64,000 bases of DNA from Verrucomicrobiota bacterium (GTDB lineage Bacteria; Verrucomicrobiota; Verrucomicrobiia; Limisphaerales; UBA11358), in the NCBI GenBank assembly GCA_049517655.1, contig JBEKRQ010000004.1, forward strand, positions 22,838 to 86,837, read 5' to 3'. The position numbers were made by a program, and so were the translations under genes. Numbering within the stretch: position 1 is the first letter of the stretch; every line of letters starts with the position of its first letter. Shown piece by piece: positions 2,641 through 62,328 of this stretch. Below the pieces are notes generated by a model. That model did no database searches and was not told where the DNA came from. It saw only the letters and a list, made by a program, of their open reading frames with translations.

Positions 2641-4122
<1,482 letters not shown>

Positions 4123-4210
4123 TTCGGGGCGAAGGCGCAAAAAACTTCACAACCGGGCGCTGCCTGTTTCAATGGGCGCGTGAAAGCCCATTACTCGGCG
4201 CCGCGCTGAT

Positions 4211-7200: not shown

Positions 7201-9460
7201 GGGCACCAACAACACGCTTACCGCGCAACAACAATTCATGGTCCAGAATTATCTGAACGGCGGCGGCTCCTTCTTCATGGCCTCGCTGGGCATCTTGAGC
7301 CAGTTGGGAGACATGCCGTTTCGCAGGAACGTGCTGCAAGTGGCCGGGTTCAAACAAAATCCCGACCCGCCCGCGCCCTGCCAGGATTGCGACGAATATT
7401 TTGGCGTGCCGGCCATCTTCGGCGCGCCGGGCGACCCCATATCGGACGGCATCTATTTGACGCTGGATTACGGCAATTATCCGAGTTTCGATTTGGATGA
7501 GGAAACGACTTTGGGGCCGGACTTCTCCGACACGTTCACGCCCGCCACCAACGCCACCGCAATCTGCTTCGAGTCGGCTTCGGGAAAACCGTGCGGGATG
7601 AGTTATCCGCAAATCGGGCAGGACAGCCCCGGTCGCGTTGTTTTTCTTTCCTTCCCGTTGGACGTCGTGCCGGTGGCCGGAACCCCGCCCGACAATGAGG
7701 TGGTTCTCCTGCGGAACATCCTCAACTTTCTGGTGCCGGGCGCGAACGGCGTGGGAACCATTTTCCTCGATAACACGATCTACACCGTGCCCGACCAGAT
7801 CACGGTCGAGGTGGGCGACTCGGACCTGACTGGAACCGGCCAGACGCAAGCCATCTTCTCGACCAGTTCAGCAACCAATCAGGTGACGGTGACTCTGAAC
7901 GAAACGACCCATCCCGGCCTGTTCCGGGGGTTCATCACGCTGGTGGCTACGAACACTGCCGCGAATCAATTGGCGGTTCGCAATGGAGACACGATTACGG
8001 CGAAATATTTCGACGCCTCGAACGGCAGCAACGTGGTCGCCACCGCGACGGTGGACACCGTGCCGCCGGTCATCAGCCAGGTTGCGGCGGTCACCGGCAT
8101 TGGGGCCGCCGTGGTGAGTTGGAAAACCTCGAAGCCGGCGGACTCGCTGGTGCAATACGGCGAATCTGTGCTGCTCGACCGGACGGCCTACGCCGGGGCG
8201 TTGGTGACCAATCATTCTGTCACGGTGTCGGGACTTCTGGCGAACCGGAGCTACTATTACCAAGTGGCCAGCCGTGATGCGGCCGGCAACACAACCGTGG
8301 ACGATAATAATGGCGCGCTGTTCACGTTCACCACGCAAACGGCGCCGCAGCCGCCGTGGTTCGACAATTTGGAGAGTGGCGCGCCCGGTTGGAGCGTCGT
8401 GCCCGATCCCATTTATGGTTCTGACATGAATTGGACGCTGGGCACTCCCAACAACGGTCTCGAGACCAGCGCGCATTCGGGCAGGAATTGCTGGGGCAGC
8501 GATCTCTACGGCCAGTCGTTCGGTTTTCTGGCCAGCAGTTTCCTCTACAGCCCGATGATTGATCTCTCCGGCGTGAGCCAGGCCACCCTCACGTTCTGGC
8601 ATAGTTACGATTTCAGTTCCCAACTCGAGGACGGCCAGCTCGGCATCAGCACCAACAGCAGCACGTCACCGAACTCGATCCCCACATTGGTGGATTATGC
8701 CGGGCAAACGTCCGATGGCTGGGAGGAGGAAACCGTGGATCTGACGCCTTACGTTGGAAAAACCATTCAGGTGGTCTGGTATTACCAGGGAGTTTACATC
8801 GGCGAGCCGCTCTACGGCTGGCTGGTGGATGATGTCAGCATCACGGGCGTGGCTGCGGGCTCGGGCGGAACCATTGTCATCTCGAAAAACCTAGGCCAGG
8901 GGAGCTTCACCCTCACCGGACCGGTGAACCAGTCCGGCACGGCGCTTTTGACCACCATCAGCAACGCACCGCCCGGCCCGTACGCCGTGCAATTCAGCGA
9001 CGTGGCGTTTTATCAGACGCCTCTCGACCAGTCGAACACACTGGCCACCACCGGCACGCTGAATTTCACCGGCAACTACAGCTTTATTGACGTGAACCAC
9101 AACGGTATCTCGGACGCGTGGGAAAAATATTATTTCGGCTCCGTGTCCACCAATCGCACGCAGTTCACCGACTCGGACGGGGATGGGATGTCGGATTACG
9201 CCGAGTTCATCGCGGGGACCAATCCGACCAACGCCGCCTCCAAGCTGTTTTTCCTCTCGACTGCGGTCCAGACGAACCGGCTCGTCCAACTGCAATGGGC
9301 GGCGATTCCCGGCCGGGTTTATCAACTCGAAAGTTCAACCAACCTCGTCACTTGGACGCCGCTCACCGGCTGGCTTCAAGCTTCGGGCAGCCCCATGTCC
9401 TATGCCGGAACCAACTTCAATTCCGGTTCACAATTTTTCCGCGTGCAAGTCCGGCCGTGA
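4211..9460 (+). CDS. Secreted multidomain subtilisin-like (S8) serine protease, 1749 aa
   Basis: Signal-like N-terminus and an I9-like propeptide (LFLVQFESPLKPAE..). Catalytic triad motifs: VADTGLD (Asp codon 5000-5002), HGTHCAG (His 5111-5113), GGTSMSGPH (Ser 5747-5749). Two FN3/purple-acid-phosphatase-N-like modules (..YYGTN..TSHSIKLGRLIPGRTYYFYVSSADAAGN; ..VQYGES..HSVTVSGLLANRSYYYQVASRDAAGN). A MAM/jelly-roll-like module, a calcium-binding DSDGDGMSDYAEF repeat, and a C-terminal beta domain. Confidence 0.85.
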   Translation: MPEGRRNGILVTVKSRCLPRTYCILLAACLILLNFTADGQTKQIRLRNGTITTAPAAKAAAATQSRSQALSVQSPVSGLFLVQFESPLKPAERSELQALGIELLKYVPDDAFIAKFNSVSPDTVRALNFIRWVGPYRSDYKIHPRLSAAVSNVSQTNRIVTVNILISPGAAPAEIAVVRSLLSSVQHESHLRQGVILRGNLDAARLPALAQSGSVLWIEPAPRRKLVDELASKVVGGDDGNTGTPTVTEQLGFGGAGVTVCVADTGLDTGNTNTMHLDLRGRVTGFKYYGSLTDGSDGYGHGTHCAGIVAGNAATGETDPDSGAFYGLGVASGASLFVERIFDDDANEVNPAPSDGDLTRDAVRAGAQIGGNSWGNDVQGEYDLDAAQFDELVRDADASTPGDQPYILEFSAGNAGPDSETMDSPASGKNVIATGASENVPGTLAETYGLYADGPDTMADFSSRGPCEDGRIKPDLVAPGTWIASAASSAAPDEAAIAWTVIDDYYVFMGGTSMSGPHAAGAAAVFVQYYKSLHTNAVPSPALVKAALINSADELDEANGGPGPIPNNDEGWGRVNLANIVVTNLNGAPRYYQYLDQSVLLTSGQVYVQHVLVQNSGQPLKITMAYTDVPGFPGAIPALVNDLDLEVVGPDGTLYRGNQFSGGESVPNAPSADSINNVEAVHLAQPLPGDYLVRVRARNVVQDARLDTSAIDQDFALVVSGNLARPNAGFILLDRSSYTAPGVMQVEVIDPARAGSNSVSVLVKSTTEPAGETYVLHSAGTYGAFTGAVATVTGAAAVDGELEIHNADAVEADYVDSSGSLRTATAVADLVPPVLSNVAVTVDTGIITITWLTSEPANAVIYYGTNLVFNLAATNSALTTSHSIKLGRLIPGRTYYFYVSSADAAGNTVTDNNSGAWYSFVAVATPTVLLVDDYDTAGEEDAGSTVIPDSAYTNALTAAGFSYGFWKVNQRGYPQLSDLQPFLVVIWRTTDDIVNYEGTNNTLTAQQQFMVQNYLNGGGSFFMASLGILSQLGDMPFRRNVLQVAGFKQNPDPPAPCQDCDEYFGVPAIFGAPGDPISDGIYLTLDYGNYPSFDLDEETTLGPDFSDTFTPATNATAICFESASGKPCGMSYPQIGQDSPGRVVFLSFPLDVVPVAGTPPDNEVVLLRNILNFLVPGANGVGTIFLDNTIYTVPDQITVEVGDSDLTGTGQTQAIFSTSSATNQVTVTLNETTHPGLFRGFITLVATNTAANQLAVRNGDTITAKYFDASNGSNVVATATVDTVPPVISQVAAVTGIGAAVVSWKTSKPADSLVQYGESVLLDRTAYAGALVTNHSVTVSGLLANRSYYYQVASRDAAGNTTVDDNNGALFTFTTQTAPQPPWFDNLESGAPGWSVVPDPIYGSDMNWTLGTPNNGLETSAHSGRNCWGSDLYGQSFGFLASSFLYSPMIDLSGVSQATLTFWHSYDFSSQLEDGQLGISTNSSTSPNSIPTLVDYAGQTSDGWEEETVDLTPYVGKTIQVVWYYQGVYIGEPLYGWLVDDVSITGVAAGSGGTIVISKNLGQGSFTLTGPVNQSGTALLTTISNAPPGPYAVQFSDVAFYQTPLDQSNTLATTGTLNFTGNYSFIDVNHNGISDAWEKYYFGSVSTNRTQFTDSDGDGMSDYAEFIAGTNPTNAASKLFFLSTAVQTNRLVQLQWAAIPGRVYQLESSTNLVTWTPLTGWLQASGSPMSYAGTNFNSGSQFFRVQVRP

Positions 9461-20505: not shown

Positions 20506-20585
20506 TTCGGGCTGACGGTTGAGTTCAGTGGCGGCGTTTTCGCCGTCCGCTGCAATGATTGGTTGGCCAACGGAACTTTTCTTTT

Positions 20586-21125
20586 TTAATTCAAGTTAAT
20601 ATTGGTATTTAAGGCCAAATCCTTGATTACTGCCTTCAAAACCCTTGCTTTTGATTTCATATCAGACTTATCGACTTTTTCACGTGCAAGTTTTTCTTCT
20701 GCTTCTTTTATCGCTTTGTTAATTAAGTCAATCGACATTCTTGCACAAATTTTACAATAAAGGTTCATTGATCGACCTTCATTATAATTCTGGAGTAGCT
20801 CTTCCACCAATGCCTGCCTTTCTTTTTGTTCCTTTAGCCAATTTTCCAGACCGACTTCATTGATTTGACGTAAATTATCAGCAGCCGGAATCCACTCTAC
20901 AACTTTTCTTCTCAAGAAGATTGCGCAATTAAATATTTCACTGCATTCGGTACAAGTCTCAAATCCATGCTTCTTTACACAGCAATTCCAAATACTGCAC
21001 CATGAGTGTTGTTCTCCTAATCTGCAACCAATGCATCTGCTCGGCGCTTTTGACTGATACTTGTTACATAATCCGCAATATAACCCGCAGCACCCGATGA
21101 GATTCTTTGCTTCACTACCTTTCAT
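20586..21125 (-). CDS. DUF3795-like cysteine-rich protein (low-GC gene)
   Basis: IGCCGLYCGLCNKYQ..CIGCRLGEQHSWCSIWNCCVKKHGFETCTEC, followed by a helical C-terminal half. Visibly AT-rich relative to flanking genes. Confidence 0.65.
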   Translation of the reverse strand: MKGSEAKNLIGCCGLYCGLCNKYQSKAPSRCIGCRLGEQHSWCSIWNCCVKKHGFETCTECSEIFNCAIFLRRKVVEWIPAADNLRQINEVGLENWLKEQKERQALVEELLQNYNEGRSMNLYCKICARMSIDLINKAIKEAEEKLAREKVDKSDMKSKARVLKAVIKDLALNTNINLN

Positions 21126-21155
21126 TTTTTCACCGATTGTCTTTTTACAGTTGTT

Positions 21156-21299
21156 GTCTAATGATCCAAAGCTGCCTGCCTCAACACAGCTCGGCAATAG
21201 CGAAGATGGGAGCCGCGGCGGATGTTGTTTGTTGAGATTGGCTCCAGCCTGCGGGGCCGTGGCCCCTTCGTCTCGGCGAAGGCCAGTGTGGTGTTAGGC
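21156..21299. repeat. attC-like imperfect palindrome, copy D (GTCTAAT...GTTAGGC)
   Basis: Homologous to the 59137 and 60699 copies: CTAATGATCCAAAGCTGCCTGCC.., ..GATTGGCTCCAGC... It ends in GTTAGGC, whose TTA is the stop codon (minus strand) of ORF 21294..21539. Confidence 0.5.
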
Positions 21300-21539
21300 A
21301 TCAGTTTTCGTATCACCTCGCTTCCGCCAGCAAAAACTGGCAAGGCCGATAATGGTAAATGTAAGCCAAGCCGTGTATGATGGAAACCAAACCGACCACC
21401 ACCTGTCTGAAAAATACTCCGCCTCTGCTTTCTTCAATAAAAGCAACGCGACTAAATTTAAGGCTATCGTAATCGCTAGTCCAAACAATCCGATGAATGC
21501 GAACGAACCAGCCAGTTTGAATGATTTGCATGGCTTCAT
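21294..21539 (-). CDS. Small membrane protein, hypothetical (81 aa)
   Basis: Two hydrophobic helices (GSFAFIGLFGLAITIALNLVALLLL; TAWLTFTIIGLASFCW). Bracketed by GTTAGGC (21293-21299) and GCCTAAC (21561-21567). Confidence 0.4.
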   Translation of the reverse strand: MKPCKSFKLAGSFAFIGLFGLAITIALNLVALLLLKKAEAEYFSDRWWSVWFPSYTAWLTFTIIGLASFCWRKRGDTKTDA

Positions 21540-21560
21540 ATTTTAGGTGCGTGTGCTGAT

Positions 21561-21642
21561 GCCTAACGTTCCAAAGCTGAACCATGCCTGGTCGGTAATA
21601 CAAGGACAAAACTTATTAAACGGCCGGAAGTTCAGGTTTGCC
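21561..21642. repeat. Truncated attC-like site, copy E (GCCTAAC-GTTCCAAA-GCTGAAC ... GTTCAG)
   Basis: Same 5' architecture as the other copies. CTGAAC (21577-21582) can pair with GTTCAG (21630-21635), but no GTTRRRY box follows. Confidence 0.3.
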
Positions 21643-22867: not shown

Positions 22868-23083
22868 TCACACCTTCACTTCGCGGCTCGTGCCGGGAAT
22901 CCAGATTTGCTCCGGTGGCGACTGACCGGCGCTCTGCCAATCCATCGCGCGCTCCACAATTTCACGCATCTGCATGAACCACCAGCCCGCGCGGGCGATG
23001 CGTCCTCCGCGTCGCGCGGGATTGGCGCCCCGACATTGGATGTCGGGGTTGAAGCCGAGTTCGAGTTGTTCGTTTGTCGTCAT
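22868..23083 (-). CDS. Small basic hypothetical protein (71 aa)
   Basis: MTTNEQLELGFNPDIQCRGANPARRGGRIARAGWWFMQMREIVERAMDW... The start was chosen at an internal ATG. No function recognised. Confidence 0.35.
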   Translation of the reverse strand: MTTNEQLELGFNPDIQCRGANPARRGGRIARAGWWFMQMREIVERAMDWQSAGQSPPEQIWIPGTSREVKV

Positions 23084-23295
23084 GATTCGCCTTTCTTTTG
23101 ACGACATTCTGACAGGCGGGGTTGGACAAAGGCTGTCCAAGCCGGAAAGAAATCGGGATGTTATACTTCACAAACCCACAACCCATAGGAGGAAGCTGTG
23201 AATAACCACAATTTTGGGGGACTCCTTAATTTGAAATGGTGGGGGGCTTTACTTCCGGCGGTTTGGCATGAAATTGCGGGATGCAGGTATAAAAT

Positions 23296-24165
23296 TCATT
23301 TTCCGTCAAAATGTCCCAGTGGACGCCCTGTCATATCCATCAAATCAACCGGCATAACCTCGGCATTTGTCTGGCCATTTGCGTTTTTGATTATTTTGCA
23401 GCTAATCATGCCGAGTCGTTGCTTTTGTGCCGGAATTGGAAATTCCCATTTCAGGTCATTTGCAATGACCACAACATTCCCAGAAAGAACATTCACATTA
23501 GAGCCTATTTGCCGCATTTCAATTGAGAAGCCTTTAACTCCATCAAAAAATCCAGCTTGGTTTTGCCACATCCACTTGTTGAAGAAATGGCCATACATAA
23601 CATCGCCAGAATCGTGGAATGATATGACAACATCATGCGTGTCTGGATGCACATTGTTTGGAATAAGATTTAATATGGAAATGTTGGCTGCATCCGCTCC
23701 AAGTCCGATGCTTGGAATTTTGTCAGAAACGTTTGTGCCTTGGAGAAACATTATGCCAGCACCGGTCATTTCTTCTAAATTAGAATATGGCAGCGGCGGC
23801 GGAGAAAAATCGCCCTTGATTCTAAATGTGGCAACCGCCGAAATGGAAGTGATTGGGCGTTTTAATGGGTCGTTTTTGGCCTCATCAATTTTGATTTGTC
23901 TAATTTCCAATCCATCTCTTGCCGCAAATGTGCCGGCAACAATAGTTTCAATGGCGATACCAACCATTAACATATTCCAGCCGCGCCCCGTTGATTTTTT
24001 AGATGCCCTAAAATCGGCAATGTCTTGGAACATTTCTTTGGCGGATTTTTTTTCCTTCCATAGTCCCCAAAACACAAGGCCGCCACCCAGCATGGCAAAA
24101 AACATAGTGACTAATTCCACAACCAGCCATGACAGCGCATCTGATGAAAAAACAGCCGAAAACAT
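23296..24165 (-). CDS. Hypothetical membrane protein (2 N-terminal TM helices plus beta-rich C-terminal domain), AT-rich island
   Basis: LSWLVVELVTMFFAMLGGGLVFWGLW and GWNMLMVGIAIETIVAGTFAA helices. Normal amino-acid composition, unlike the fully overlapping + strand ORF 23198..24241. Confidence 0.55.
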   Translation of the reverse strand: MFSAVFSSDALSWLVVELVTMFFAMLGGGLVFWGLWKEKKSAKEMFQDIADFRASKKSTGRGWNMLMVGIAIETIVAGTFAARDGLEIRQIKIDEAKNDPLKRPITSISAVATFRIKGDFSPPPLPYSNLEEMTGAGIMFLQGTNVSDKIPSIGLGADAANISILNLIPNNVHPDTHDVVISFHDSGDVMYGHFFNKWMWQNQAGFFDGVKGFSIEMRQIGSNVNVLSGNVVVIANDLKWEFPIPAQKQRLGMISCKIIKNANGQTNAEVMPVDLMDMTGRPLGHFDGK

Positions 24166-24435
24166 ATATGTTTTAATTTGGACGATTTGCGGGTTGGCTT
24201 ATTTGGCGCTTGTGATTTTTGTCATGACCCGCAGAAAATAATTTTTGCAATCTTCAAAATGCGTGCAATTTTCCAATCGTTTTGGGTGCGACCGATAGCA
24301 AGAGAATGTCCGCATCTAAAAACCCTGACAACAATAAAGAGGGGGGCGAAAAATGACACCTAAACTTTTGCCCCCGTTTTTCCAACAAAATAACTGGCTG
24401 GACGATTTTCAGGCGTTTGTGGATGATTTGACAAT

Positions 24436-25206
24436 ATGGCAGAAAAGCCCTCTAAAAGGCGACATTCCTATCTGGTTAAGGCCATTCTCAAAACCGGCGA
24501 GGACTTTGGAGCCACCGAAATCATTTCAGAAATCGTGGGAGGCATCGTAATTGCATTCCTTGCATATCAACGGGGAATCGCAAACCAAGCTGAGCTTCGA
24601 GCTTTGATTTTTCTATGTGTCGGGGCGGCTATAATTGCACCCATTTTCGGATTTTTAATGAGGCTCGTTTTCATAACGCCCTATAAAATTTATAAAGACC
24701 AAGAGTCCGAAATTGAAACGCTTCAGACTGAACTTGAGAAACAAAAAGCTACGAAAGCCAATCTTGAGATAATCCCCAAGGTTGTGCCAAATTACGAAGG
24801 ACAATATGTTTTTATTTGCGTCCATAATATCGGGCCTGCCTTTGCCAAAGAAGTTGAGGTTAAGTTAGAAAAATTTTTATTTAAGGATTCAATCAATGAA
24901 ACAATCGCTTCTCGCATAGGAAGGAAAGGGATTAAGGAAGATACGCCGGAAAATGCAATCACTGATATTAACGCTCAAAGCGAAGATACATGGGTACTTC
25001 TTTCCAATAACAGCGTTCAGCTATTCACAGATCTTCGGCTATTTATAATCCCCGACATCCGCATTTACGAACGTGCCGTGAATTTACGTGAATTTGAATT
25101 TTGGGTCAGCGCAAATGCCCAAAACGCGGCTTCTAAAAAAGAGATTTATATCAAGCTAAGGCTAAACGAGGCAGGAAAGGCAACGCTTGAAACGAAATGC
25201 TTGTGA
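24436..25206 (+). CDS. Hypothetical membrane protein (2 TM helices, short coiled coil, beta-rich C-terminal domain), AT-rich island
   Basis: IISEIVGGIVIAFLAY and ALIFLCVGAAIIAPIFGFLMRLVFI helices, then QESEIETLQTELEKQKATKANLE. No motif recognised. Confidence 0.55.
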   Translation: MAEKPSKRRHSYLVKAILKTGEDFGATEIISEIVGGIVIAFLAYQRGIANQAELRALIFLCVGAAIIAPIFGFLMRLVFITPYKIYKDQESEIETLQTELEKQKATKANLEIIPKVVPNYEGQYVFICVHNIGPAFAKEVEVKLEKFLFKDSINETIASRIGRKGIKEDTPENAITDINAQSEDTWVLLSNNSVQLFTDLRLFIIPDIRIYERAVNLREFEFWVSANAQNAASKKEIYIKLRLNEAGKATLETKCL

Positions 25207-27762: not shown

Positions 27763-27864
27763 AAAAGCGGCGGAGGGCCGCCGCAGTCCAAGACGCTGCG
27801 CGCAACACGATGATTTCTCAAATACGCGAAGCGTTTTGGAGTGCGCCAGTCCCCTGGCGCTTTG
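27763..27864. repeat. Inverted pair of a roughly 32-bp hairpin unit (GTYTTGGASTGCG-stem-loop-CGCTTTK)
   Basis: AAAAGCGGCGGAGGGCCGCCGCAGTCCAAGAC ... GTTTTGGAGTGCGCCAGTCCCCTGGCGCTTTG. The same unit occurs at 33661-33763 and 39567-39648. Confidence 0.85.
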
Positions 27865-28019
27865 CACGAGGACGAACTGTCCTCGAGATTTCCTCATGAA
27901 CCTGTTTGTGCCAATGATAATATGAACTGCTATAGAGTGGAGGCAATTTGCAAAGGCCGGTTTCCTTTAAGGAAAATGGCGGATTGTTTGGAGGAATTTT
28001 TACGCGGATTAAACCCGGC

Positions 28020-33660: not shown

Positions 33661-33763
33661 AAAGCGGCGGATAGCCGCCGCACTCCAAAACCTGTCGGTT
33701 ACTTCGACGATTTTCCCGCAACGCGCCAGCGTCTTGGACTGCGCCAGTCCTCTGGCGCTTTGG
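33661..33763. repeat. Inverted pair of the roughly 32-bp hairpin unit (second copy)
   Basis: AAAGCGGCGGATAGCCGCCGCACTCCAAAAC ... GTCTTGGACTGCGCCAGTCCTCTGGCGCTTTGG. Confidence 0.85.
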
Positions 33764-39566: not shown

Positions 39567-39648
39567 GTTTTGGACTGCGCCAGCCCTCTGGCGCTTTGGG
39601 CAACACCGATGGTGGCAAAAGCGGTGGAGGGCCACCGCACTCCAAGAC
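39567..39648. repeat. Inverted pair of the roughly 32-bp hairpin unit (third copy, opposite order)
   Basis: GTTTTGGACTGCGCCAGCCCTCTGGCGCTTTGG ... AAAAGCGGTGGAGGGCCACCGCACTCCAAGAC. Confidence 0.85.
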
Positions 39649-42331: not shown

Positions 42332-42480
42332 CGAATCCCAGTTGAGCCACGCCGAAACCAAAACGTCGTCCACGAAAGGCAGGGCTAGAGAGGTGGGGAA
42401 TCCGCATGATAATTAACATCGAACGTCGAAGATTGAAGATGGAAACAGGCAAGATGACTGTTACCACTGTTTGAGTTCGG

Positions 42481-42533
42481 CTTGCGAGGATCAGCCTTCG
42501 TCAGACTTCGGCCAGACGAGCGCTCGCCCCACC
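42481..42533. repeat. Repeat unit CTTGCGAGGATC..GGCCAGACGAGCGCTCGCCCCACC (reverse complement of 61601-61653)
   Basis: A near-identical reverse-complement copy lies at 61601-61653. It abuts the stop codon (42539) of the TPR gene. Confidence 0.8.
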
Positions 42534-50144: not shown

Positions 50145-52532
50145 CTATTTCTGCAGCGGCTTTCCTGTAAATTCCATTCCGACGAGGCAGACGTCGTCGT
50201 CAAATTCGTGATCCACGGAAAATGCGCGGATGGTTTCAAGCAATTTGTCGAACAGTTGCGCGGCGGGTTTGTCCAGCAGGTTTTGCACGTCCAGCAGCAA
50301 CCGTTCCTGTGAATACAATTTCTCGTTCAAGCCCTGCACTTCGTAGAGGCCATCGGTGAACAGCATCACAAGGTCGCCGGGCGCGATGGCGGCTTCACTG
50401 GTTTGATAGGGCGGGGCTTCGAACAGGCCGAGCGCGGGCTGGCTGCGGCCGGTGGCGTTGGCGAGCGGCTCAACGCGATTGGCCGAGCGACGCACGAGCA
50501 GGGGCTTGGGATGGCCGGCGTTGGCGAAGCGCATGTGGCCGGTGCGCCAGTTGGCAACGAGATAAAACGCAGTGGTGAGCATCGGCGAGCCGGTGGTTTT
50601 GAGAATGATGAACAAGTCGGAGTTGAGCTTGCGCAAGAACATTCCCGGATCGTGCGCCAACGGTTTCAATTCCTCGCCGAGCGCGCGAATCATGGCGGTG
50701 ACCAGCGCAGCGCGAACGCTGTGCCCGGTCACGTCACAAATAAAAACGCCCACTTCATCGTCCGAAAGGGCGGACACGCTGAAAAAGTCGCCACTGACGG
50801 TTTCCGCCGGCTGATAACGGTGAATGAACTGGAAAACGCTTTTCCCCGGCGGCGCGTTGCGCGGGAACACCGGATATTGTTGCGGCAACATGGCAAGCTG
50901 GATCTCTCGCGCCATGCGGAGGTTTTCCTCCATGAGCAGGTTTTTGGTGCGCAATTCCTCGCGGCTGCGGGCGAGTTCGGCGTTTGTCTGGCGGATTCGT
51001 TCTTCGGCGAGTTTTTGAGCCGTGACGTCCCAGAAGATGCCCTGCAAGCCGATGATTTTCCCGTCGGCCCCGTAAAGAGGTGTTTTGACGACCTGGGTTA
51101 TCCTTTGCTCCTGTCCCAAAGGGTGATGTTCCTCGACGATTTCATAGGTCTTGCCGGTTGCCATGACCCGCTGGTCGTCCCTGGCATATTGTTCCGCCAA
51201 CTCCTTCGGGAAAAAGTCGAAATCCGTTTTGCCAAGGATGTCCTCCAGCTTGCAGTTGTAATGTTTGCAATACTGTTGATTGGCGAAGGTGAACCGCCCC
51301 TGGGTGTCTTTGCGAAAGACGTTTTGGGGCATCGTTTCCACCAGTGAATGGTAAAGGGATTCCGAATTCCGCAAAGCCTCCTCGATCTGGCGCTGTTTAG
51401 TGACGTCCCAGAAGATGCCCTGCAAGCCGATGATTTTTCCGTCGGCCCCGTAAAGCGGGGTTTTGACGACCTGGGTGATGCGTTTTTCCTGCCCCAGCGG
51501 ATGGTGTTCCTCGACGATTTCGTAGGTCTTGCCGGTTGCCATGACCCGCTGGTCGTCCTTGGTATATTGTTCCGCCAACTCCTTTGGGAAAAAGTCGAAA
51601 TCCGTTTTGCCGAGGATGTCCTCCAGCCTGCAGTTGTAATGTTTGCAATACTGTTGATTGGCGAAGGTGAACCGCCCCTGGGTGTCTTTGCGGAAGACGT
51701 TTTGCGGCATCGTCTCCACCAGCGAATGATACAGCGCTTCGGAATTGCGCATGTTTGCTTCGGCTTGCCGGCGTTGCGTCATGTCCTCGACTGTGCCTTC
51801 GTAGTAAAGCAATTTGCCGCGCGCGCCGCGCACCACCCGGCAATTTTCCGAGACCCAGATGATTGAGCCGTCCTTGCGATAAATCCGCGACTCGAAATTC
51901 GTGATGGTATCGTTCTTTTTCATCAACCGGATGAAGTCATCGCGCCGGCCCGGATCGACGTAAAGGCTGCGCCCGATGTCCCTGATGCTCGCCATCAATT
52001 CCACCGGCGAGTCGTAGCCGTAAATGCGCGCCAATGCCACGTTGGCCAGGAGATAACGTCCGTCGGGCGTGGTGCGGAAGATGCCTTCGACGAGATGGTC
52101 AAAAAGATCGTAGTAATCCTTCTTTTCCTTGATCAACGCGTTCCATTCGTATTGACGTTCAATCGCGCGGTGAATCACCGGCGCCAGCGCGTGTGTGCCG
52201 AGTCGCTGCTTGGCGAAGTATTCCTGCGCGCCCGCCCGAATGACTTCCACTGCAAATGTCTCGTCTTTCGCCGGGCCCAAAACCACAATCGGCAAAGTGG
52301 GGGCTTTGGTGGCGAGGGATGTGACCTGGAACAAGCCGGCAGCGTTCGCCGTTGGAAGTTCGAACAAAACGACGCCGAACGAACTGGTCGCCAACCTGGA
52401 CAGCCCGGCCTCCATCGTCGGCGCGGCGGCGACTTCGGTTTTTTCCTTGTCGTTGCGGAAGTTGCCGGCAACCGCGCGCGCAAGACGCTTGTCGCCGGCA
52501 ATCAACAAAACCTTTAGCGATTCAGTTTGCAT
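50145..52532 (-). CDS. Pseudo-receiver, three PAS domains and a PP2C (SpoIIE/RsbU-type) phosphatase
   Basis: N-terminal CheY-like fold with Glu in place of the phospho-Asp (VVLFELP). Three PAS modules, two of them near-identical. C-terminal ETVSGDFF...FICDVTGHS...LMLFTDGLYE, characteristic of PP2C. Confidence 0.85.
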   Translation of the reverse strand: MQTESLKVLLIAGDKRLARAVAGNFRNDKEKTEVAAAPTMEAGLSRLATSSFGVVLFELPTANAAGLFQVTSLATKAPTLPIVVLGPAKDETFAVEVIRAGAQEYFAKQRLGTHALAPVIHRAIERQYEWNALIKEKKDYYDLFDHLVEGIFRTTPDGRYLLANVALARIYGYDSPVELMASIRDIGRSLYVDPGRRDDFIRLMKKNDTITNFESRIYRKDGSIIWVSENCRVVRGARGKLLYYEGTVEDMTQRRQAEANMRNSEALYHSLVETMPQNVFRKDTQGRFTFANQQYCKHYNCRLEDILGKTDFDFFPKELAEQYTKDDQRVMATGKTYEIVEEHHPLGQEKRITQVVKTPLYGADGKIIGLQGIFWDVTKQRQIEEALRNSESLYHSLVETMPQNVFRKDTQGRFTFANQQYCKHYNCKLEDILGKTDFDFFPKELAEQYARDDQRVMATGKTYEIVEEHHPLGQEQRITQVVKTPLYGADGKIIGLQGIFWDVTAQKLAEERIRQTNAELARSREELRTKNLLMEENLRMAREIQLAMLPQQYPVFPRNAPPGKSVFQFIHRYQPAETVSGDFFSVSALSDDEVGVFICDVTGHSVRAALVTAMIRALGEELKPLAHDPGMFLRKLNSDLFIILKTTGSPMLTTAFYLVANWRTGHMRFANAGHPKPLLVRRSANRVEPLANATGRSQPALGLFEAPPYQTSEAAIAPGDLVMLFTDGLYEVQGLNEKLYSQERLLLDVQNLLDKPAAQLFDKLLETIRAFSVDHEFDDDVCLVGMEFTGKPLQK
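51022..51777. repeat. Tandem duplication, 378-bp period, inside the regulator gene (two PAS modules)
   Basis: GTGACGTCCCAGAAGATGCCCTGCAAGCCGATGATTTT recurs at 51022 and 51400. The two copies align over most of their length with scattered substitutions. Confidence 0.9.
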
Positions 52533-57673: not shown

Positions 57674-59134
57674 ATGCCAGGTGTTTTTATTAAAACCTAC
57701 GGCTGCCAGATGAACGAGCGCGACAGCGAAGCCGTCGCCGCGCAACTCGTGGCGAAGGGTTACACACTCGCGCCGTCCGAGGCATCGGCGGACGTGATTC
57801 TGCTCAACACCTGCAGCGTGCGCGATTTCGCAGAGCAGAAAGCCATCGGCAAGATGCAGAACATCGCCGCTGATGTCCGAAAAAATCGTCCGAACGTCGT
57901 GCTCGGTTTCATGGGTTGCATGGCGCAGAGCCGCGCACAGGAACTCATCGACCGCCTGCCGGACGTGGATTTGGTGCTCGGCACGCAAAAATTTCATCAC
58001 GCGGCGGATTATCTCGGCGAAATTATTTCCGGCCGGCGCGAAAAAATCGTGGACGTGGCGGAAGAGCAGGGGAGTGAAGCAACGATTCGCGAGCATTTGC
58101 TTTACGGCGCGAACGGAAAAAATGGCGTCGGTCACAGACCGCCGCTACAGGTCACCGCGTTCGTCAGCATCATGCAAGGCTGCAACCAGCGCTGCACGTT
58201 TTGCATCGTGCCGGCGACGCGCGGAGAGGAACGCAGCCGGAGCATCGCCGACATTGTTGCCGAATGTCGCGAACTCGTTTCGCGCGGTGTGAAGGAAATT
58301 ACGCTGCTCGGCCAGATTGTCACCAGTTATGGACGGAGACGCTCGCCCGACGTTGTGACGGTAGGTAGGGCTCGCTCTCCGAGCGAGCCGGTTGGTGTTC
58401 GGCGCGATGGGGACATCGCGCCCTACCGAATAAAGGACGGCAAAACTCCTTTCGTCCAGCTTCTCGATGCTGTTCATGAGATTGACGGTTTGGAACGCAT
58501 CCGTTTTACTGCACCGCATCCGAAAGGTTATGGCGATGATTTGGTCGGGGCTTACGCCCGCCTGCCAAAACTTGTCGAGCATGCGCATCTGCCCGTCCAA
58601 AGCGGCAGCGACCGCGTCCTGAAATTGATGCACCGCGGTTACACGCGCAAACGCTTCCTCGGCATCATTCAAAAATTGCGCCGCGCGAAACCGGACATCG
58701 GCATCACAACCGACCTCGTCGTCGGTTTTCCGGGCGAGACGGAGGACGACTTCGAGCAAACCCTTTCGCTCGCGCGCGAGGTTGAATTCGACAACGCCTA
58801 CATCTTTAAATATTCGCCTCGCCGCGACACGCCGGCGGCGGAGATGCCGGACCAAATTTCGCGCGAAGTCCGTGAAGAAAGAAATCAAATCCTGTTACGA
58901 ATAATCAACGAAATTGCTGCGCGCAAATACAAAAGGTTTGTCGGACGGCGGACTCAGATTCTCGTCGAAGGGCCGAGCAGGAAAAATCCGGCGCGCATGA
59001 CCGGACGCACGCGCTGCAATAAAATTGTGGTGTTCGACGGTTCAGAACGGCATCGCGGCCAGCTCATGGACGTGAAAATCACCCGCGCCGGTTCCTTCAC
59101 GCTTTACGGCGACCCGGCAATTGTGAATTTGTGA
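57674..59134 (+). CDS. miaB: tRNA-2-methylthio-N6-dimethylallyladenosine synthase
   Basis: FIKTYGCQMNERDSE, radical-SAM motif GCNQRCTFCIVP, LLGQIVTSYG, RIRFTAPHP, and a TRAM domain. It carries an in-frame palindromic insert at 58365-58426. Confidence 0.95.
   Translation: MPGVFIKTYGCQMNERDSEAVAAQLVAKGYTLAPSEASADVILLNTCSVRDFAEQKAIGKMQNIAADVRKNRPNVVLGFMGCMAQSRAQELIDRLPDVDLVLGTQKFHHAADYLGEIISGRREKIVDVAEEQGSEATIREHLLYGANGKNGVGHRPPLQVTAFVSIMQGCNQRCTFCIVPATRGEERSRSIADIVAECRELVSRGVKEITLLGQIVTSYGRRRSPDVVTVGRARSPSEPVGVRRDGDIAPYRIKDGKTPFVQLLDAVHEIDGLERIRFTAPHPKGYGDDLVGAYARLPKLVEHAHLPVQSGSDRVLKLMHRGYTRKRFLGIIQKLRRAKPDIGITTDLVVGFPGETEDDFEQTLSLAREVEFDNAYIFKYSPRRDTPAAEMPDQISREVREERNQILLRIINEIAARKYKRFVGRRTQILVEGPSRKNPARMTGRTRCNKIVVFDGSERHRGQLMDVKITRAGSFTLYGDPAIVNL
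58365..58426. repeat. GTAGGG...CCCTAC palindromic element located inside the miaB reading frame
   Basis: GTAGGGCTCGCTCTCCGAGCGAGCC GGTTGGTGTTC GGCGCGATGGGGACATCGCGCCCTAC has two stem-loops. It is translated as ..GRARSPSEPVGVRRDGDIAPY... Confidence 0.85.
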
Positions 59135-59136
59135 GG

Positions 59137-59312
59137 AGCTAACGATCCAAAGCTGCCTGCCCCGGCGTAGCTCGGCTAGAGCGAAGATGGGAGCCACGGC
59201 CATAGGAGGCTAGGCCAGCTATGCAACTCTGATAATCGAATTTCATTTGTCGGTCGAAACTGAAGGGGTCCCGATGCTGTTTATCGGGATTGGCTCCGGC
59301 GACTTGTCAGGC
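59137..59312. repeat. attC-like imperfect palindrome, copy A (AGCTAAC...GTCAGGC)
   Basis: The left 62 nt and right roughly 45 nt are identical to copy B. Architecture: box, GATCCAAA, GCTGCCTGCC ... GGCTCCGGC, GACTT, box. Confidence 0.5.
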
Positions 59313-59335
59313 GGCACGTGCGGTTCCTCCGTGAG

Positions 59336-59788
59336 TTATTCCTTGACCCGCTTGGCTTCCCAATCGCGCGTGAAGGACTCGCCCGCCCACTTGGTTTCAA
59401 CGGTGCCTTGGATCATGTCACCAGTGATCTTCCCGTGGAATTTCTTCACGGCGTTTTGCCCTTTCCCCGATTCTGTGTGGAGGATAACGGTAAAGGAAAT
59501 CTCGCTCGCCTTGAGCTTCGCGTCTTGGAGGACCATTTTGATGTCTTGCTGGCCGCGACGGCGAGTCAATGTACCTGTCAACTTGTCTCCTTCCAGCTTG
59601 AGTTTGAGAGTGGGTTGAAACGTCTGACTCTTGCCAGAGTTGTTCGTCTGGCCTTTGCCAGAGTCAATGTAAGTCACCTTCCAAGTCCCAGTGAGGTTGG
59701 CTGTAGGCTCCTCGGCGCTGACGGTTGGGCCGGTGACGGCTAGGAACAGTAATGCGGTTGTTAAACAGATGCTTTGCTGTAGTTTCAT
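59336..59788 (-). CDS. Small secreted protein, hypothetical (150 aa)
   Basis: Signal peptide MKLQQSICLTTALLFLAVTGPTVSA followed by a beta-rich sequence. No motif recognised. Confidence 0.55.
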   Translation of the reverse strand: MKLQQSICLTTALLFLAVTGPTVSAEEPTANLTGTWKVTYIDSGKGQTNNSGKSQTFQPTLKLKLEGDKLTGTLTRRRGQQDIKMVLQDAKLKASEISFTVILHTESGKGQNAVKKFHGKITGDMIQGTVETKWAGESFTRDWEAKRVKE

Positions 59789-59866
59789 AGGTGTTTACGT
59801 GGTTAATGTTGAACTTTCACACAACTCTTCGGACAGTCTTGCAATCAAATCGTCACACTCAATGCC

Positions 59867-59996
59867 GCCTAACGATCCAAAGCTCAGCCACGCGGGACCA
59901 AAAACCGTGAACCGCGAAGCGGAACTGGCTTGTCGCGCCATAGCGTAGCGACGGCGGAAGCGGCCATCCCGCCTTGGCTGCAGCGATTTGTCAGGC
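59867..59996. repeat. attC-like imperfect palindrome, copy C (GCCTAAC...GTCAGGC)
   Basis: GCCTAAC-GATCCAAA-GCTCAGCC-A-CGCGGGA ... TCCCGC-CTT-GGCTGCAGC-GATTT-GTCAGGC. The arms pair with a single bulged base. The TCA at 59991-59993 is the stop of the PEP-CTERM ORF. Confidence 0.55.
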
Positions 59997-60677
59997 AGCA
60001 ATCTTTTTGCATTGCGAATGACGCCATGCTGCCCCTGCTGCCGAGAGAGCGCAGACTACGAACCAGCAAGGGCTCGGTTCTGGTACGGGGACAACCATCA
60101 CATCGTCGACGTACTGATAAGTATCGTCCGCCTGATCGAAATTTCGCAACATCGTGATTCTGATCTCATGATTTCCTGCCGGCACGTTTGTCATGATCCC
60201 AGCGAGCGTGTCCCTTTTGATTTGCCCCGCCAACAATTGACCGGAGGCCCAACTATCTATCACCACCCCATCAAGAAGAAGTTGAAACGTGCCTCCATCG
60301 TTGTTTCCGCCGACAGGGAAGTCGTATTGGGCTGCGACATGGAGCGAAAACTGAAGATTGGTAGCCCCATTCAAGGAAAAATCCTGAAACAGTCCCCCTC
60401 CTTGTTGGCCTGGCTGGCCGTTGAATCGATCACGCCCAACGGAAAGTGTCGCGGCAAATGTGTTGCTGCCAACCCCTGCGACGTCGAACTGGAGCACGGC
60501 AGGTACAGTGTTAAATGTATCACTGATGTCGCCTCCGGGTGTAGTAAACAGAGTCCAAGGAGTAAACAGCCCAGTCTCGAAGTCGGCATTCTGGATCAGT
60601 GTAGCGCCTTGAATAGGCGCTTCTACCCAGAGAACGAACAAGCCTGCCACTAGTTTTAAGAATTGCGTTGTCTTCAT
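59991..60677 (-). CDS. PEP-CTERM sorting-signal protein with jelly-roll-like domain
   Basis: Signal peptide. LIQNADFETGLFTPW resembles a carbohydrate-binding-module opening. C-terminal VPEPSPCWFVVCALSAAGAAWRHSQCKK gives PEP, a TM helix and a basic tail. Confidence 0.75.
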   Translation of the reverse strand: MKTTQFLKLVAGLFVLWVEAPIQGATLIQNADFETGLFTPWTLFTTPGGDISDTFNTVPAVLQFDVAGVGSNTFAATLSVGRDRFNGQPGQQGGGLFQDFSLNGATNLQFSLHVAAQYDFPVGGNNDGGTFQLLLDGVVIDSWASGQLLAGQIKRDTLAGIMTNVPAGNHEIRITMLRNFDQADDTYQYVDDVMVVPVPEPSPCWFVVCALSAAGAAWRHSQCKKIAA

Positions 60678-60698
60678 GCCTCGCTATCCCTCTATGTC

Positions 60699-60908
60699 GC
60701 CTAACGATCCAAAGCTGCCTGCCCCGGCGTAGCTCGGCTAGAGCGAAGATGGGAGCCACGGCCATCCGTCTTCGCTCCGAAGCTACGACGGGACAGACCG
60801 GCGGCCAACTCAGCAATGCAATCTGGACTCTCATATTTCATAACTCAACCGAAAACTCAAGGGGTCCCGATGCTGTTTATCGGGATTGGCTCCGGCGACT
60901 TGTTAGGC
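60699..60908. repeat. attC-like imperfect palindrome, copy B (GCCTAAC...GTTAGGC), with an internal extra hairpin
   Basis: Both boxes are perfect. The interior carries CCGGCGTAGCTCGGCTAGAGCGAAGATGG..CCATCCGTCTTCGCTCCGAAGCTACGACGG. The right arm is translated as the last 17 aa of the TlpA-like ORF. Confidence 0.5.
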
Positions 60909-61492
60909 CTCTGTCTCAACGAATCAATGAACTTGATAACCGACGGGTGAGACCAATCTGCTGACCCGACGTGTTTGAAGACAATCATCCCGTGCGTATC
61001 TATTACAAATGTAGCGGGAATGCCATCGGTCTTATACACACCCGGCAACTGATACCCACTCAGTGAAAAAATGGGAGCTTCAGAATCAAGCGCACCTCTG
61101 TTCTTAAAAATCGTATTGGCGGACTCTTGACTCAAACAAATAACAGCCACGTCCTTGTCGGCTGAATAATGGGCGGCCAGCTTGCCAAGACTGGGCAACT
61201 CTGCCATACAAGGCATACACCATGTCGCCCAGACGTTTAGGATAACCACACGACCGCGATAATCTTTGAAATTCAGTGACGTGCCATTCTTGCCAACTGC
61301 GGTGAACTCGAATCCGGCTGGCTGCGGCGTGGAAAACTCAGGAGGCGAGAGATGCACTTGCTTGAGCATCTTTGTTTCCATGGGCTTGAGCCAAAAATAG
61401 TAAGCGGAAAATATGAGAGCGACAATGCATGTGAAGCAGCTTGCAAAACCTGCCGCAAAAATGAGCCACGATTTAAGTGATGGAATACGCAT
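60857..61492 (-). CDS. TlpA-like thiol-disulfide oxidoreductase (thioredoxin fold, membrane-anchored)
   Basis: N-terminal TM helix. ILNVWATWCMPCMAELP contains the CxxC motif. GIPATFVID. Confidence 0.8.
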   Translation of the reverse strand: MRIPSLKSWLIFAAGFASCFTCIVALIFSAYYFWLKPMETKMLKQVHLSPPEFSTPQPAGFEFTAVGKNGTSLNFKDYRGRVVILNVWATWCMPCMAELPSLGKLAAHYSADKDVAVICLSQESANTIFKNRGALDSEAPIFSLSGYQLPGVYKTDGIPATFVIDTHGMIVFKHVGSADWSHPSVIKFIDSLRQRPNKSPEPIPINSIGTP

Positions 61493-61600
61493 AAAAGGTC
61501 TAACAGTGAGTAGGCGGCGTTGTATGCAGCCTATCTCGTTTCATGATTTTGACTTTGCTCCCAGCGAAAATGTTTGTCCAGAGAAAATGGTTTACGCTTC

Positions 61601-61709
61601 GGTGGGGCGAGCGCTCGTCTGGCCGAAGTCTTACGAAGGCCGATCCTCGCGAGCCGGTTCTGTCGCACGGAGTTTAGTGGTGGCGGCTCGTCAGTAGCCT
61701 CGCCCCACC
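61601..61709. repeat. GGTGGGGCGAG...CTCGCCCCACC bounded palindromic element
   Basis: The left 53 nt are the reverse complement of 42481-42533. The terminal 11-mers are complementary. Confidence 0.8.
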
Positions 61710-61773
61710 AAAACTAAACCCAGATCGAATTTTTCGTGTCCATTTGTGTTCATTCGTGGTTTAATTCCCAAAG

Positions 61774-62328
61774 ATGAAACTGTCGCTGCTTTCCATTTTG
61801 CTCGGTCTCGGCGTGAGCGTGCCACAAATTATTGGTCTGGCCAGACCGGCGCAATTAACCGCTGCCGTGCGCAAATTTCCGCGCAATCTGCCCATCGGTA
61901 TCGTGCTTATGTTACTCGGCACGGCATGGTTTGTGTGGAATGTGAACGTCGAACCGATTGCGGATTTCTCGGTTTTCAAACCGTATATGATGGCCGGTTT
62001 CGTGGCGGTTGGAATTTTATCGTGCATTTTTGTCCGGGATTTTCTGGCCGTGCGTGGCCTGGCCATCCTGATGTTGTTGCTGGCGAAATTAATGGTGGAC
62101 ACGGGCCGTCCACATCTGGGCGAAACGCCGTGGGTGCTGGTGATTCAAGTTTGGGCTTATGTGCTCGTTGTCGCGGGAATTTGGTTCACCATCACGCCGT
62201 GGCGATTACGCGATTTTCTGAATTGGGCGACAGCGACTGAAGAACGCATCCTCATCGGCTGTTCCATTCGATTGGCATTTGCGGTGTTCGTGTTGATTCT
62301 CGGCCTGACTGCTTTCCGCTCGATGTAA
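61774..62328 (+). CDS. Hypothetical polytopic membrane protein (184 aa)
   Basis: Five or six hydrophobic helices. No motif recognised. Confidence 0.5.
   Translation: MKLSLLSILLGLGVSVPQIIGLARPAQLTAAVRKFPRNLPIGIVLMLLGTAWFVWNVNVEPIADFSVFKPYMMAGFVAVGILSCIFVRDFLAVRGLAILMLLLAKLMVDTGRPHLGETPWVLVIQVWAYVLVVAGIWFTITPWRLRDFLNWATATEERILIGCSIRLAFAVFVLILGLTAFRSM

Follow-up and report, generated by a model that had tools for sequence, protein, structure and literature searches.

We describe an integron cassette array that lacks an integrase in a 64,000-nt stretch of DNA (the window) from a Verrucomicrobiota bacterium (contig JBEKRQ010000004.1, positions 22,838 to 86,837). An earlier note on the same DNA, made from the sequence alone, had read three related elements near the right end of the window as attC sites, and this reading is supported by the attC anatomy of the elements, by co-oriented arrays of the same family in other genomes and by family members that adjoin integron integrase (IntI) genes there. 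The segment 59137-61535 is best explained, with a probability of roughly 0.85, as an attC cluster without an integron integrase (CALIN), in which an attI-like site is followed by three promoterless cassettes that carry attCs of one family and would have been captured by an IntI acting in the past or in trans. As the earlier note stated, no integrase is in view: neither an IntI match (E < 2) nor an IntI remnant was found in the 64-kb window or in the 8 kb past its right end, which is why the cluster is classed as a CALIN. The features of the cluster, in the order in which they are read on the minus strand, are as follows.

61498-61535, minus strand: putative attI-like head site, GATAGGCTGCATACAACGCCGCCTACTCACT-GTTAGAC, with the G|TT crossover core 5 nt before the ATG of the first cassette.
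60857-61492, minus strand: cassette 1 open reading frame (ORF), 211 aa, a membrane-anchored thioredoxin-fold protein, TlpA/ResA/DsbE-like and read as a thiol-disulfide oxidoreductase; its 3' end enters attC C.
60699-60908, minus strand: attC C, 210 nt, composite, R'' GCCTAAC and R' GTTAGGC.
59991-60677, minus strand: cassette 2 ORF, 228 aa; the protein has a signal peptide and a C-terminal tail made of VPEP and a hydrophobic stretch, and the TGA codon falls within R'' of attC B.
59867-59996, minus strand: attC B, 130 nt, intact and canonical, GCCTGAC-AAATC-GCT[G]CAGCC-stem/loop-GGCTGAGC-TTTGGATC-GTTAGGC.
59336-59788, minus strand: cassette 3 ORF, 150 aa, secreted (signal peptide).
59137-59312, minus strand: attC A, 176 nt, composite, R'' GCCTGAC and R' GTTAGCT, the latter 2 nt from the miaB stop codon (59134).

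The three elements lie where the earlier note had placed them (59137-59312, 59867-59996 and 60699-60908) and both of their ends align. The 16-mer that they share at the left end, CTAACGATCCAAAGCT, occurs five times in the window at up to three mismatches, compared with 0.56 expected by chance, and 0 of 100 shuffled sequences reached five. The geometry of ORFs and boxes on the minus strand was also described correctly: the TGA of the 228-aa ORF falls inside GCCTGAC, the stop of the 150-aa ORF lies 23 nt short of its box, and the last 50 nt or so of the 211-aa ORF reach into its element. One box had been misread, as the left box of 59137-59312, given as GCCTAAC, is AGCTAAC. The labels of the products hold in part. 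The TlpA-like label of the 211-aa ORF agrees with Pfam matches to Redoxin (2.6e-15) and AhpC-TSA (1.4e-14), but the NCBIfam models for ResA and TlpA stay below their cutoffs; the PEP-CTERM label of the 228-aa ORF rests on the VPEP motif and hydrophobic C-terminal tail seen by eye, but the protein has no Pfam or NCBIfam match and no homologue in any fetched locus. The 150-aa protein likewise matches no Pfam or NCBIfam family. The AT-richness ascribed to the cassettes is marginal, since the GC content of the three ORFs (0.49-0.53) is below the window mean of 0.555 but close to that of the next two genes (0.52-0.53).

A scan of one genome per species with the 17-mer CCTAACGATCCAAAGCT returned more than 118 stretches, and the locus counts given from here on cover the matches listed, with individual loci referred to by L numbers. 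Nearly all come from metagenome-assembled genomes (MAGs) of Verrucomicrobiae and Limisphaerales that live in soil or peat. Read on the minus strand of the window, the sense strand of the ORFs, the canonical site of this family is GCCTAAC-ACCGC-GCTG[G]AGCC-AA-stem/variable loop/stem-T-GGCTCAGC-TTTGGATC-GTTAGGC, and its members follow the pattern GCCTAAC-N5-GCTGGAGCC ... GGCTCAGC-TTTGGATC-GTTAGGC. The half on the R'' side is near-invariant though it lies outside the search pattern. Sites fall into length classes of 99, 108 and 127-129 nt with constant spacers of 5 and 8 nt, and the spacer asymmetry that the earlier note had listed as a caveat is a feature of the family.

A specified pairing scheme was tested on 48 diverse sites from other genomes. 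It was determined that 93.6% of cells are paired and that 13 pairs show changes on both sides, and none of 500 shuffles reached the observed value; when the partners are slid out of register the pairing falls to 19-42%. The R helix is paired in 98.8% of cells and the R box is invariant, which is what a core recognised by a protein would show. Covariation is seen in the L box and in the inner stem; one pair, for example, is G-C in 22 sequences and C-G in 21. In the L box GCTG[G]AGCC of L'' pairs with GGCTCAGC through compensatory G-C to C-G changes, and in the inner stem as many as 23 of the 48 sequences are doubly compensated at a single pair. The fold that the earlier note had asked for, with an R box, unpaired spacers, a bulged L box and a variable stem, is thus both present and covarying. 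Canonical attCs carry an extrahelical base on the L'' side, and here one extrahelical base is found in L'', with the orientation of the site in agreement with that of the ORFs and of intI. The extrahelical base of attC_aadA7 is C on the ORF-sense strand; that of the Verrucomicrobiae family is G.

A covariance model (R1) built from these 48 foreign sites, with no window copies, detects 323 sites (E < 1e-6) in 100 loci and a further 98 (E < 0.01) in 12 more. Many of the stretches from the 17-mer scan are same-strand arrays with a spacing of 400-1100 nt and up to 12 exact 17-mer matches per 8 kb. Neighbouring sites in other genomes stand a median of 540 nt apart over 108 intervals, with a median coding fraction of 0.84, and in 89 of 107 intervals the longest ORF runs in the sense direction. 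With an IntI1 sequence that served solely as a tblastn probe, IntI homologues about 50% identical over their full length were found in 16 of the 8-kb blocks. All seven full-length ORFs that were scored pass the NCBIfam integron integrase model TIGR02249 (274-456 bits, cutoff 265), and at all 16 loci that have an IntI homologue its gene adjoins the head of the family array and is transcribed divergently away from it. These results answer the search for an integrase among relatives that the earlier note proposed and demonstrate that the window elements belong to an attC family which builds large arrays beside bona fide integron integrases in Verrucomicrobiae.

The same observations bear on whether the elements are instead generic REP/MITE-like intergenic repeats (repetitive extragenic palindromes or miniature inverted-repeat transposable elements) with terminal inverted repeats, which came to lie after ORFs through a role in transcription termination or were spread by a REP-associated tyrosine transposase (RAYT). 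The extra GC-rich hairpins of the long copies and the presence of other dispersed hairpin repeats in the same genome would fit such a repeat, as would a RAYT gene with REP elements at the orthologous site of a close relative (L123). The REP sequences of L123 are unrelated, however, and the model finds no match there. Scatter at loci unrelated to ORF ends, which the earlier note had named as the sign of a generic repeat, is not what is seen: copies in other genomes stand in strictly co-oriented arrays beside TIGR02249 integrases at 16 of 16 loci, they delimit ORF-sized units with sense ORFs, and they combine RYYYAAC/GTTRRRY ends with an asymmetric bulged L box and covarying stems. With copies that are co-oriented, ORF-spaced and IntI-adjacent, this explanation is effectively refuted and can be regarded as highly improbable.

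Two further observations concern the extent of the family. In one MAG (contig CAVWJH010000003.1) intI is located at about 195 kb and arrays are found in blocks over 192-256 kb (at least 64 kb) with about 20 attCs per 8 kb (L010, L018, L076, L069), and further arrays lie on two other contigs (L062/L107, L098, L111); these arrays make up a sedentary integron of very large size together with its satellite clusters. High-scoring family attCs also occur in MAGs that are labelled as other phyla, namely Vulcanimicrobiota (Ca. Aquilonibacter), Bifidobacteriaceae, Acidobacteriota and Planctomycetota. The loci concerned are L047, L063, L109 and L117 (MAG SMAG_U14962); L007, L009 and L116; L050, L065, L073 and L110; and L019 and L044. 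The array of L047 has about 20 cassettes, and L109, from an 'Aquilonibacter' MAG, is the only related locus among the matches listed, with about 80% DNA identity to window genes. These labels point to mis-binning or mislabelling, or to cassette traffic across phyla.

Within the window, attC B is matched over its full length by model R1, which was run unfiltered and holds sites from other genomes only, at 65.3 bits (E 1.8e-17), and this score falls inside the 30-139-bit range of sites in real arrays. In the centroid of its DNA fold, unpaired spacers of 5 and 8 nt separate a 7-bp R box from an L box in which a single G is bulged. In L'' the sequence GCT[G]CAGCC pairs with GGCTGAGC, with a C-G pair where the family has G-C, a compensatory change that is also seen in 3 of the 48 members. 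The R' box is GTTAGGC and the R'' box, GCCTGAC, deviates once from RYYYAAC. One attC of L023 is 91% identical to it. A search of the whole window against Rfam at the gathering threshold gave 0 matches, which is uninformative for attC; to our knowledge Rfam holds no attC model.

The two long copies depart from this structure. Alignment with canonical copies indicates that attC C is a family attC of the 129-nt class with a 36-nt insertion in L' and a further 29-nt insertion, and the inner stem has the hairpin CCCGATAAACAGCATCGGG in place of its 5' arm. attC A shares this hairpin and the 36-nt insertion in L', and the two copies are near-identical at both ends (96-100%). The long copies also keep the central sequence of the canonical sites. 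In attC C the REP-like hairpin that the earlier note saw in both long copies is formed by pairing between the 36-nt and 29-nt insertions. Because the insertion interrupts L', the long copies and a third one at 21156-21299 (attC D, described below) score only 12-20 bits, with partial matches of 20.2 and 15.9 bits for attC C and split matches of 16.5 and 12.1 bits for attC A. The earlier note had taken the arms GCTGCCTGCC and GGCTCCGGC of the long copies as complementary; since the 36-nt insertion splits L', they are not, and the alternative that these arms form a variant L box was rejected on the same alignment. A clean L box with one bulged base exists in the 130-nt copy 59867-59996 but not in the two long ones, and L'' and L' do not pair in attC A, C or D. 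Judged from sequence, attC B is the only intact site of the main cluster, and attC A and attC C appear as disrupted derivatives.

The 36-nt insertion (minus strand CCATCTTCGCTCTAGCCGAGCTACGCCGGGGCAGGC) was observed at the same L' point, GGCTC^AGC on the minus strand, in five attCs from two genomes. In the window the copies are at 59155-59190, 60717-60752 and 21174-21209 (plus-strand coordinates), and in another MAG the composite attC type occurs twice (L035, ~4078-4300 and ~4760-4946). Two of the five attCs carry the complementary 29-nt insertion upstream, resulting in a long hairpin with the 36-nt one. All five copies (attC A, C and D of the window and the two in L035) may descend from one event, and the insertion may represent a single ancestral event or a small element that targets attCs. 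Sequences that insert into attCs are known, such as group IIC-attC introns and IS1111-attC elements; as in those cases foreign sequence sits inside an attC, but here it is 36 nt long and has no coding capacity.

At the head of the array, a profile of seven sites from non-syntenic loci, two of them adjacent to intI, gives a single significant match in the window by nhmmer, at 61498-61535 (E 2.5e-5; the next match has E 2.8). A profile of orphan sites only finds its top matches among 13 intI loci at the attI positions of L075, L013, L010 and L121. In L013 and L075 a member of this site family separates intI from the first cassette, and L010 has a related form; members without intI head small arrays in L084, L012, L039 and L014, and L125 and L123 have one at the orthologous position. 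Exactly after GTTAGRC the homology of the window with L125 ends, and the GATAGGC of the head site resembles the GTTAGGC core. Since the profiles match both the window site and intI-adjacent attI positions, and since the homology with L125 breaks at this point, we consider with moderate confidence that 61498-61535 is attI-like by its sequence. The possibility that the GTTAGAC at the 5' end is a chance 7-mer was ruled out, as the 31 nt upstream of it belong to the recurrent site family.

The site family is 38-60 nt long (GATAGGCYGCA-N20-22-GTTAGGC) and is found without intI at unrelated loci in the window, L084, L012, L014 and L125. It is a tentative possibility, on the doubtful side, that Verrucomicrobiae chromosomes bear several orphan attI-like landing pads and that one integrase serves these distributed capture sites as a multi-locus integron. 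A recurrent motif, GCCTAATAYGAG-GATAGGCTG, was also noted at the downstream end of small cassette clusters (L084 4791-4814, L125 9374-9397, L101 3919-3942, L032 ~4871-4894 and L014 ~7812-7835) and is absent from the window; the 3' motif GCCTAATAYGAGGATAGGCTG is seen in the same five loci. The downstream motif has the GATAGGCTG core of the attI-like head site, so that some clusters are flanked by direct repeats of the core, and a repeat of at least 45 nt lies on both sides of a 1.4-kb segment in L101. The recurrence of this downstream motif hints at a pad and its cassettes moving as a unit.

On the left of the array is miaB. The divergent gene on its right encodes a membrane protein of 184 aa that matches no Pfam or NCBIfam family; this gene lies 238 nt (61536-61773) from the attI-like site and is followed by a porin gene and the pst operon. 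No insertion sequence (IS) or transposase flanks the cluster. In about 45 metagenomic relatives, whose MiaB proteins are 27-83% identical, the 184-aa gene comes after miaB at a distance of 50-330 nt, and these loci hold no family attC and encode none of the three cassette proteins. The comparison of orthologous loci that the earlier note called for thus gives relatives without these cassette units at the same site, and since the two genes abut in so many relatives the 2.6-kb block of cassettes is an insertion specific to this lineage that parted two genes of ancient adjacency. In the closest relatives, L123 and L125 (MiaB 79-81% identical), other content occupies the same spot, which in L125 is one small ORF. 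In L123 (1622-3240) the spacer between miaB and the 184-aa gene carries an IS200-like/RAYT-type transposase gene, several REP-like hairpins (GTAGCCGCGGACGTCAGTCCGCGCTGAAA), a small membrane ORF and duplications of the 3' end of miaB. Different kinds of mobile DNA have a hotspot in this spacer.

It could be argued that the array is the stump of a complete resident integron, in which the ancestor of the clade had an intI-attI platform in the spacer of miaB and the 184-aa gene and a later deletion in situ removed intI, with no integrase acting in trans. The loss of intI is an accepted origin of CALINs (PMC4889954), a truncated intI fragment lies 111 nt from a site of this type in L039, and the attI-like site is at the same position in the window, L123 and L125 with different downstream content in each. 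Against this, only about 230 nt separate the site from the 184-aa gene, part of which is a dispersed repeat and none of which shows a trace of intI, and more distant relatives have miaB directly beside the 184-aa gene with no platform. Furthermore, sites of the same type head mini-arrays at unrelated loci with no intI within reach (2.2 kb upstream in L084 and 2.1 kb upstream in L012). We therefore regard in situ loss as rather unlikely.

A second cluster, which the earlier note did not report, is located 38 kb from the main one. Its attC-like elements, at 21156-21299 and 21561-21637, flank small low-GC minus-strand ORFs, and its features are as follows.

21561-21637, minus strand: attC E, decayed, with an intact 3' half (GGTTCAGC-TTTGGAAC-GTTAGGC) and the L'' region deleted.
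21294-21539, minus strand: cassette ORF, 81 aa, two membrane helices, GC 0.45.
21156-21299, minus strand: attC D, composite; it shares the 36-nt L' insertion, carries a GC hairpin of 39 nt between R'' and L'', and has ATTAGAC as R'.
20586-21125, minus strand: cassette ORF, 179 aa, Cys-rich, DUF3795-like, GC 0.38.
20508-20572, minus strand: possible short divergent attC F, a weak candidate at the 3' end of the DUF3795-like ORF (GGCCAAC ... bulged hairpin ... GTCAGCC).

The covariance model scores attC D at 18.2 bits (E 0.002) and attC E at 10.6 bits (E 0.42), the 3' half of the latter matching many family attCs. Candidate attC F is not matched by the model; its hairpin has z = -2.1 and its R boxes are unpaired in the minimum-energy fold. 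The DUF3795 match of the 179-aa ORF (Pfam, 4.8e-4) is below the cutoff of that family. The cluster is flanked by a DUF5069-like gene and a gene for a haem-binding domain, and the synteny of L109 with this region stops at the DUF5069-like gene and so is of no help here. The segment 20586-21637 is a second, more decayed integrase-less cluster of two cassettes. A CALIN comprises at least two clustered attCs with no intI nearby, and the window therefore holds two of them, with three sites at 59137-60908 and two or three at 20508-21637; an intI beside an attI and an array, which would mark a complete integron, is not found in the window.

The second cluster is relevant to whether the three cassettes of the main one arrived together, as a pre-assembled multi-cassette circle or as a fragment of a large array translocated by ordinary rearrangement, and not one by one. 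The second cluster starts with a decayed but recognisable attC (attC E) and not with a bare core, as a translocated fragment would. The near-identity of attC A and attC C at both ends is also compatible with arrival as a block, and rearrangement is listed among the origins of CALINs (PMC4889954). The main cluster, on the other hand, begins at an attI-like site that shares only a 7-nt core with the attCs and is not an attC half-site, and neither an IS nor a transposase is present at its flanks. Arrival of the three cassettes as one block is accordingly quite unlikely.

Several results weigh against a CALIN formed by cassette capture at an attI-like site. Two of the three attCs of the main cluster have a disrupted L' box. 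The attI assignment is a 38-nt similarity of modest significance, and a profile built from three intI-adjacent sites alone, which is too specific, misses the window site. No integrase is tied to the source genome, which is not among the scan matches listed. A tblastn search of all fetched integron loci with the five cassette proteins found no homologues, and exact-protein look-ups of two of them returned only the same locus in the same population, so that mobility of the cassettes is not directly demonstrated. About 100 assembly blocks that carry the cassette proteins all share one gene order, with no sign of ongoing shuffling. The cassette-level variation that the earlier note expected is consequently borne out between lineages, as the units are absent from relatives, but not within the population, where the order is invariant.

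Under the preferred reading, an IntI encoded elsewhere in the genome, or formerly present, would recombine the folded single-stranded attC of circular cassettes with the attI-like site at G|TT, and each new cassette would enter at the head of the array. Transcription would come from the intergenic region that the array shares with the divergent 184-aa membrane-protein gene, because no module of a cassette promoter (Pc) and intI is present; scanning 58900-62000 for consensus promoters and terminators yielded no more than expected from shuffled sequence. Only attC B (59867-59996) looks recombination-competent. As the L box is broken in two of the three attCs and the population is fixed for the array, the locus is now probably static and largely sedentary cargo.

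The window clusters can be compared with three kinds of known system. As in the CALINs of Cury et al. (2016, PMC4889954), they are small (3 and 2-3 sites), have no intI within 4-10 kb and carry cassettes unrelated to resistance genes; they differ in the attI-like head of the main cluster, which is not part of the CALIN definition, and in the insertion through the L' box of two of its three attCs. Sedentary chromosomal integrons of the Vibrio type, with Vibrio cholerae repeats (VCR) as attCs, resemble the family as a whole in having one conserved attC family of about 100-130 nt, very long arrays and a divergent intI at the head; the window, in contrast, has only satellite clusters without intI, and the spacers of the family are asymmetric (5 versus 8 nt). 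A study by Loot et al. (bioRxiv 10.1101/2022.09.11.507474) described IntI-mediated insertion outside attI and proposed that small CALINs arise in this way. The window shares with these attG insertions, including single attC sites lacking integron-integrases (SALINs), the placement of cassettes between housekeeping genes, a G|TT-type junction and an integrase that presumably acts in trans. It differs in that the receiving site is not an arbitrary GWT but belongs to a 38-nt sequence family that is also found beside intI, and the site is therefore closer to attI than to attG.

Other repeated or atypical sequences in the window are recorded here. A 56-nt dispersed repeat (GGTGGGGCGAGCGCTCGTCTGGCCGAAGTC...) occurs at 61601-61656 and, inverted, at 42478-42533 with 95% identity; it is REP-like and unrelated to the attC family, and the first copy sits between the attI-like site and the 184-aa gene. 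Another intergenic repeat family is a 33-nt GC-rich hairpin, GTCTTGGACTGCGCCAGTCCTCTGGCGCTTTGG, at 27833-27865, 33731-33763 and 39567-39599 (intervals of about 5.8 kb) and inverted at 27764-27798. A 300-nt direct repeat (51022-51321 and 51400-51699, 93% identity) lies inside a 795-aa response-regulator/PAS/SpoIIE gene (50145-52532, minus strand) and is a recent internal duplication of the PAS module. The low-GC island 23000-25200 (0.41-0.45 compared with 0.555) contains ORFs without a Pfam match, such as 23296-24165 on the minus strand; family attCs are missing from its vicinity, and it may have been acquired as well.

The locus is a new case of a known type of element, the integrase-less cassette cluster, as it agrees with the CALIN definition and integrons have already been reported in Verrucomicrobia (PMC4889954). 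Less ordinary are the attI-like heads on integrase-less arrays at unrelated loci, the asymmetric spacers, the 36-nt L' insertion and the 3' motif with a GATAGGCTG core. The analysis shows that integron cassettes can be recognised by a reader of sequence alone with no integrase in view, and it documents a large and highly homogeneous family of attCs in Verrucomicrobiae from peat and soil that are uncultured; earlier mention of integrons in this phylum has been brief (PMC4889954). The family site and the attI-like head site provide handles for cassette-targeted PCR and for mining the cassette metagenome of these bacteria, which are abundant in soil. If true, attI-type heads on integrase-less arrays would bear on the origin of CALINs and on whether one IntI can serve several capture sites.

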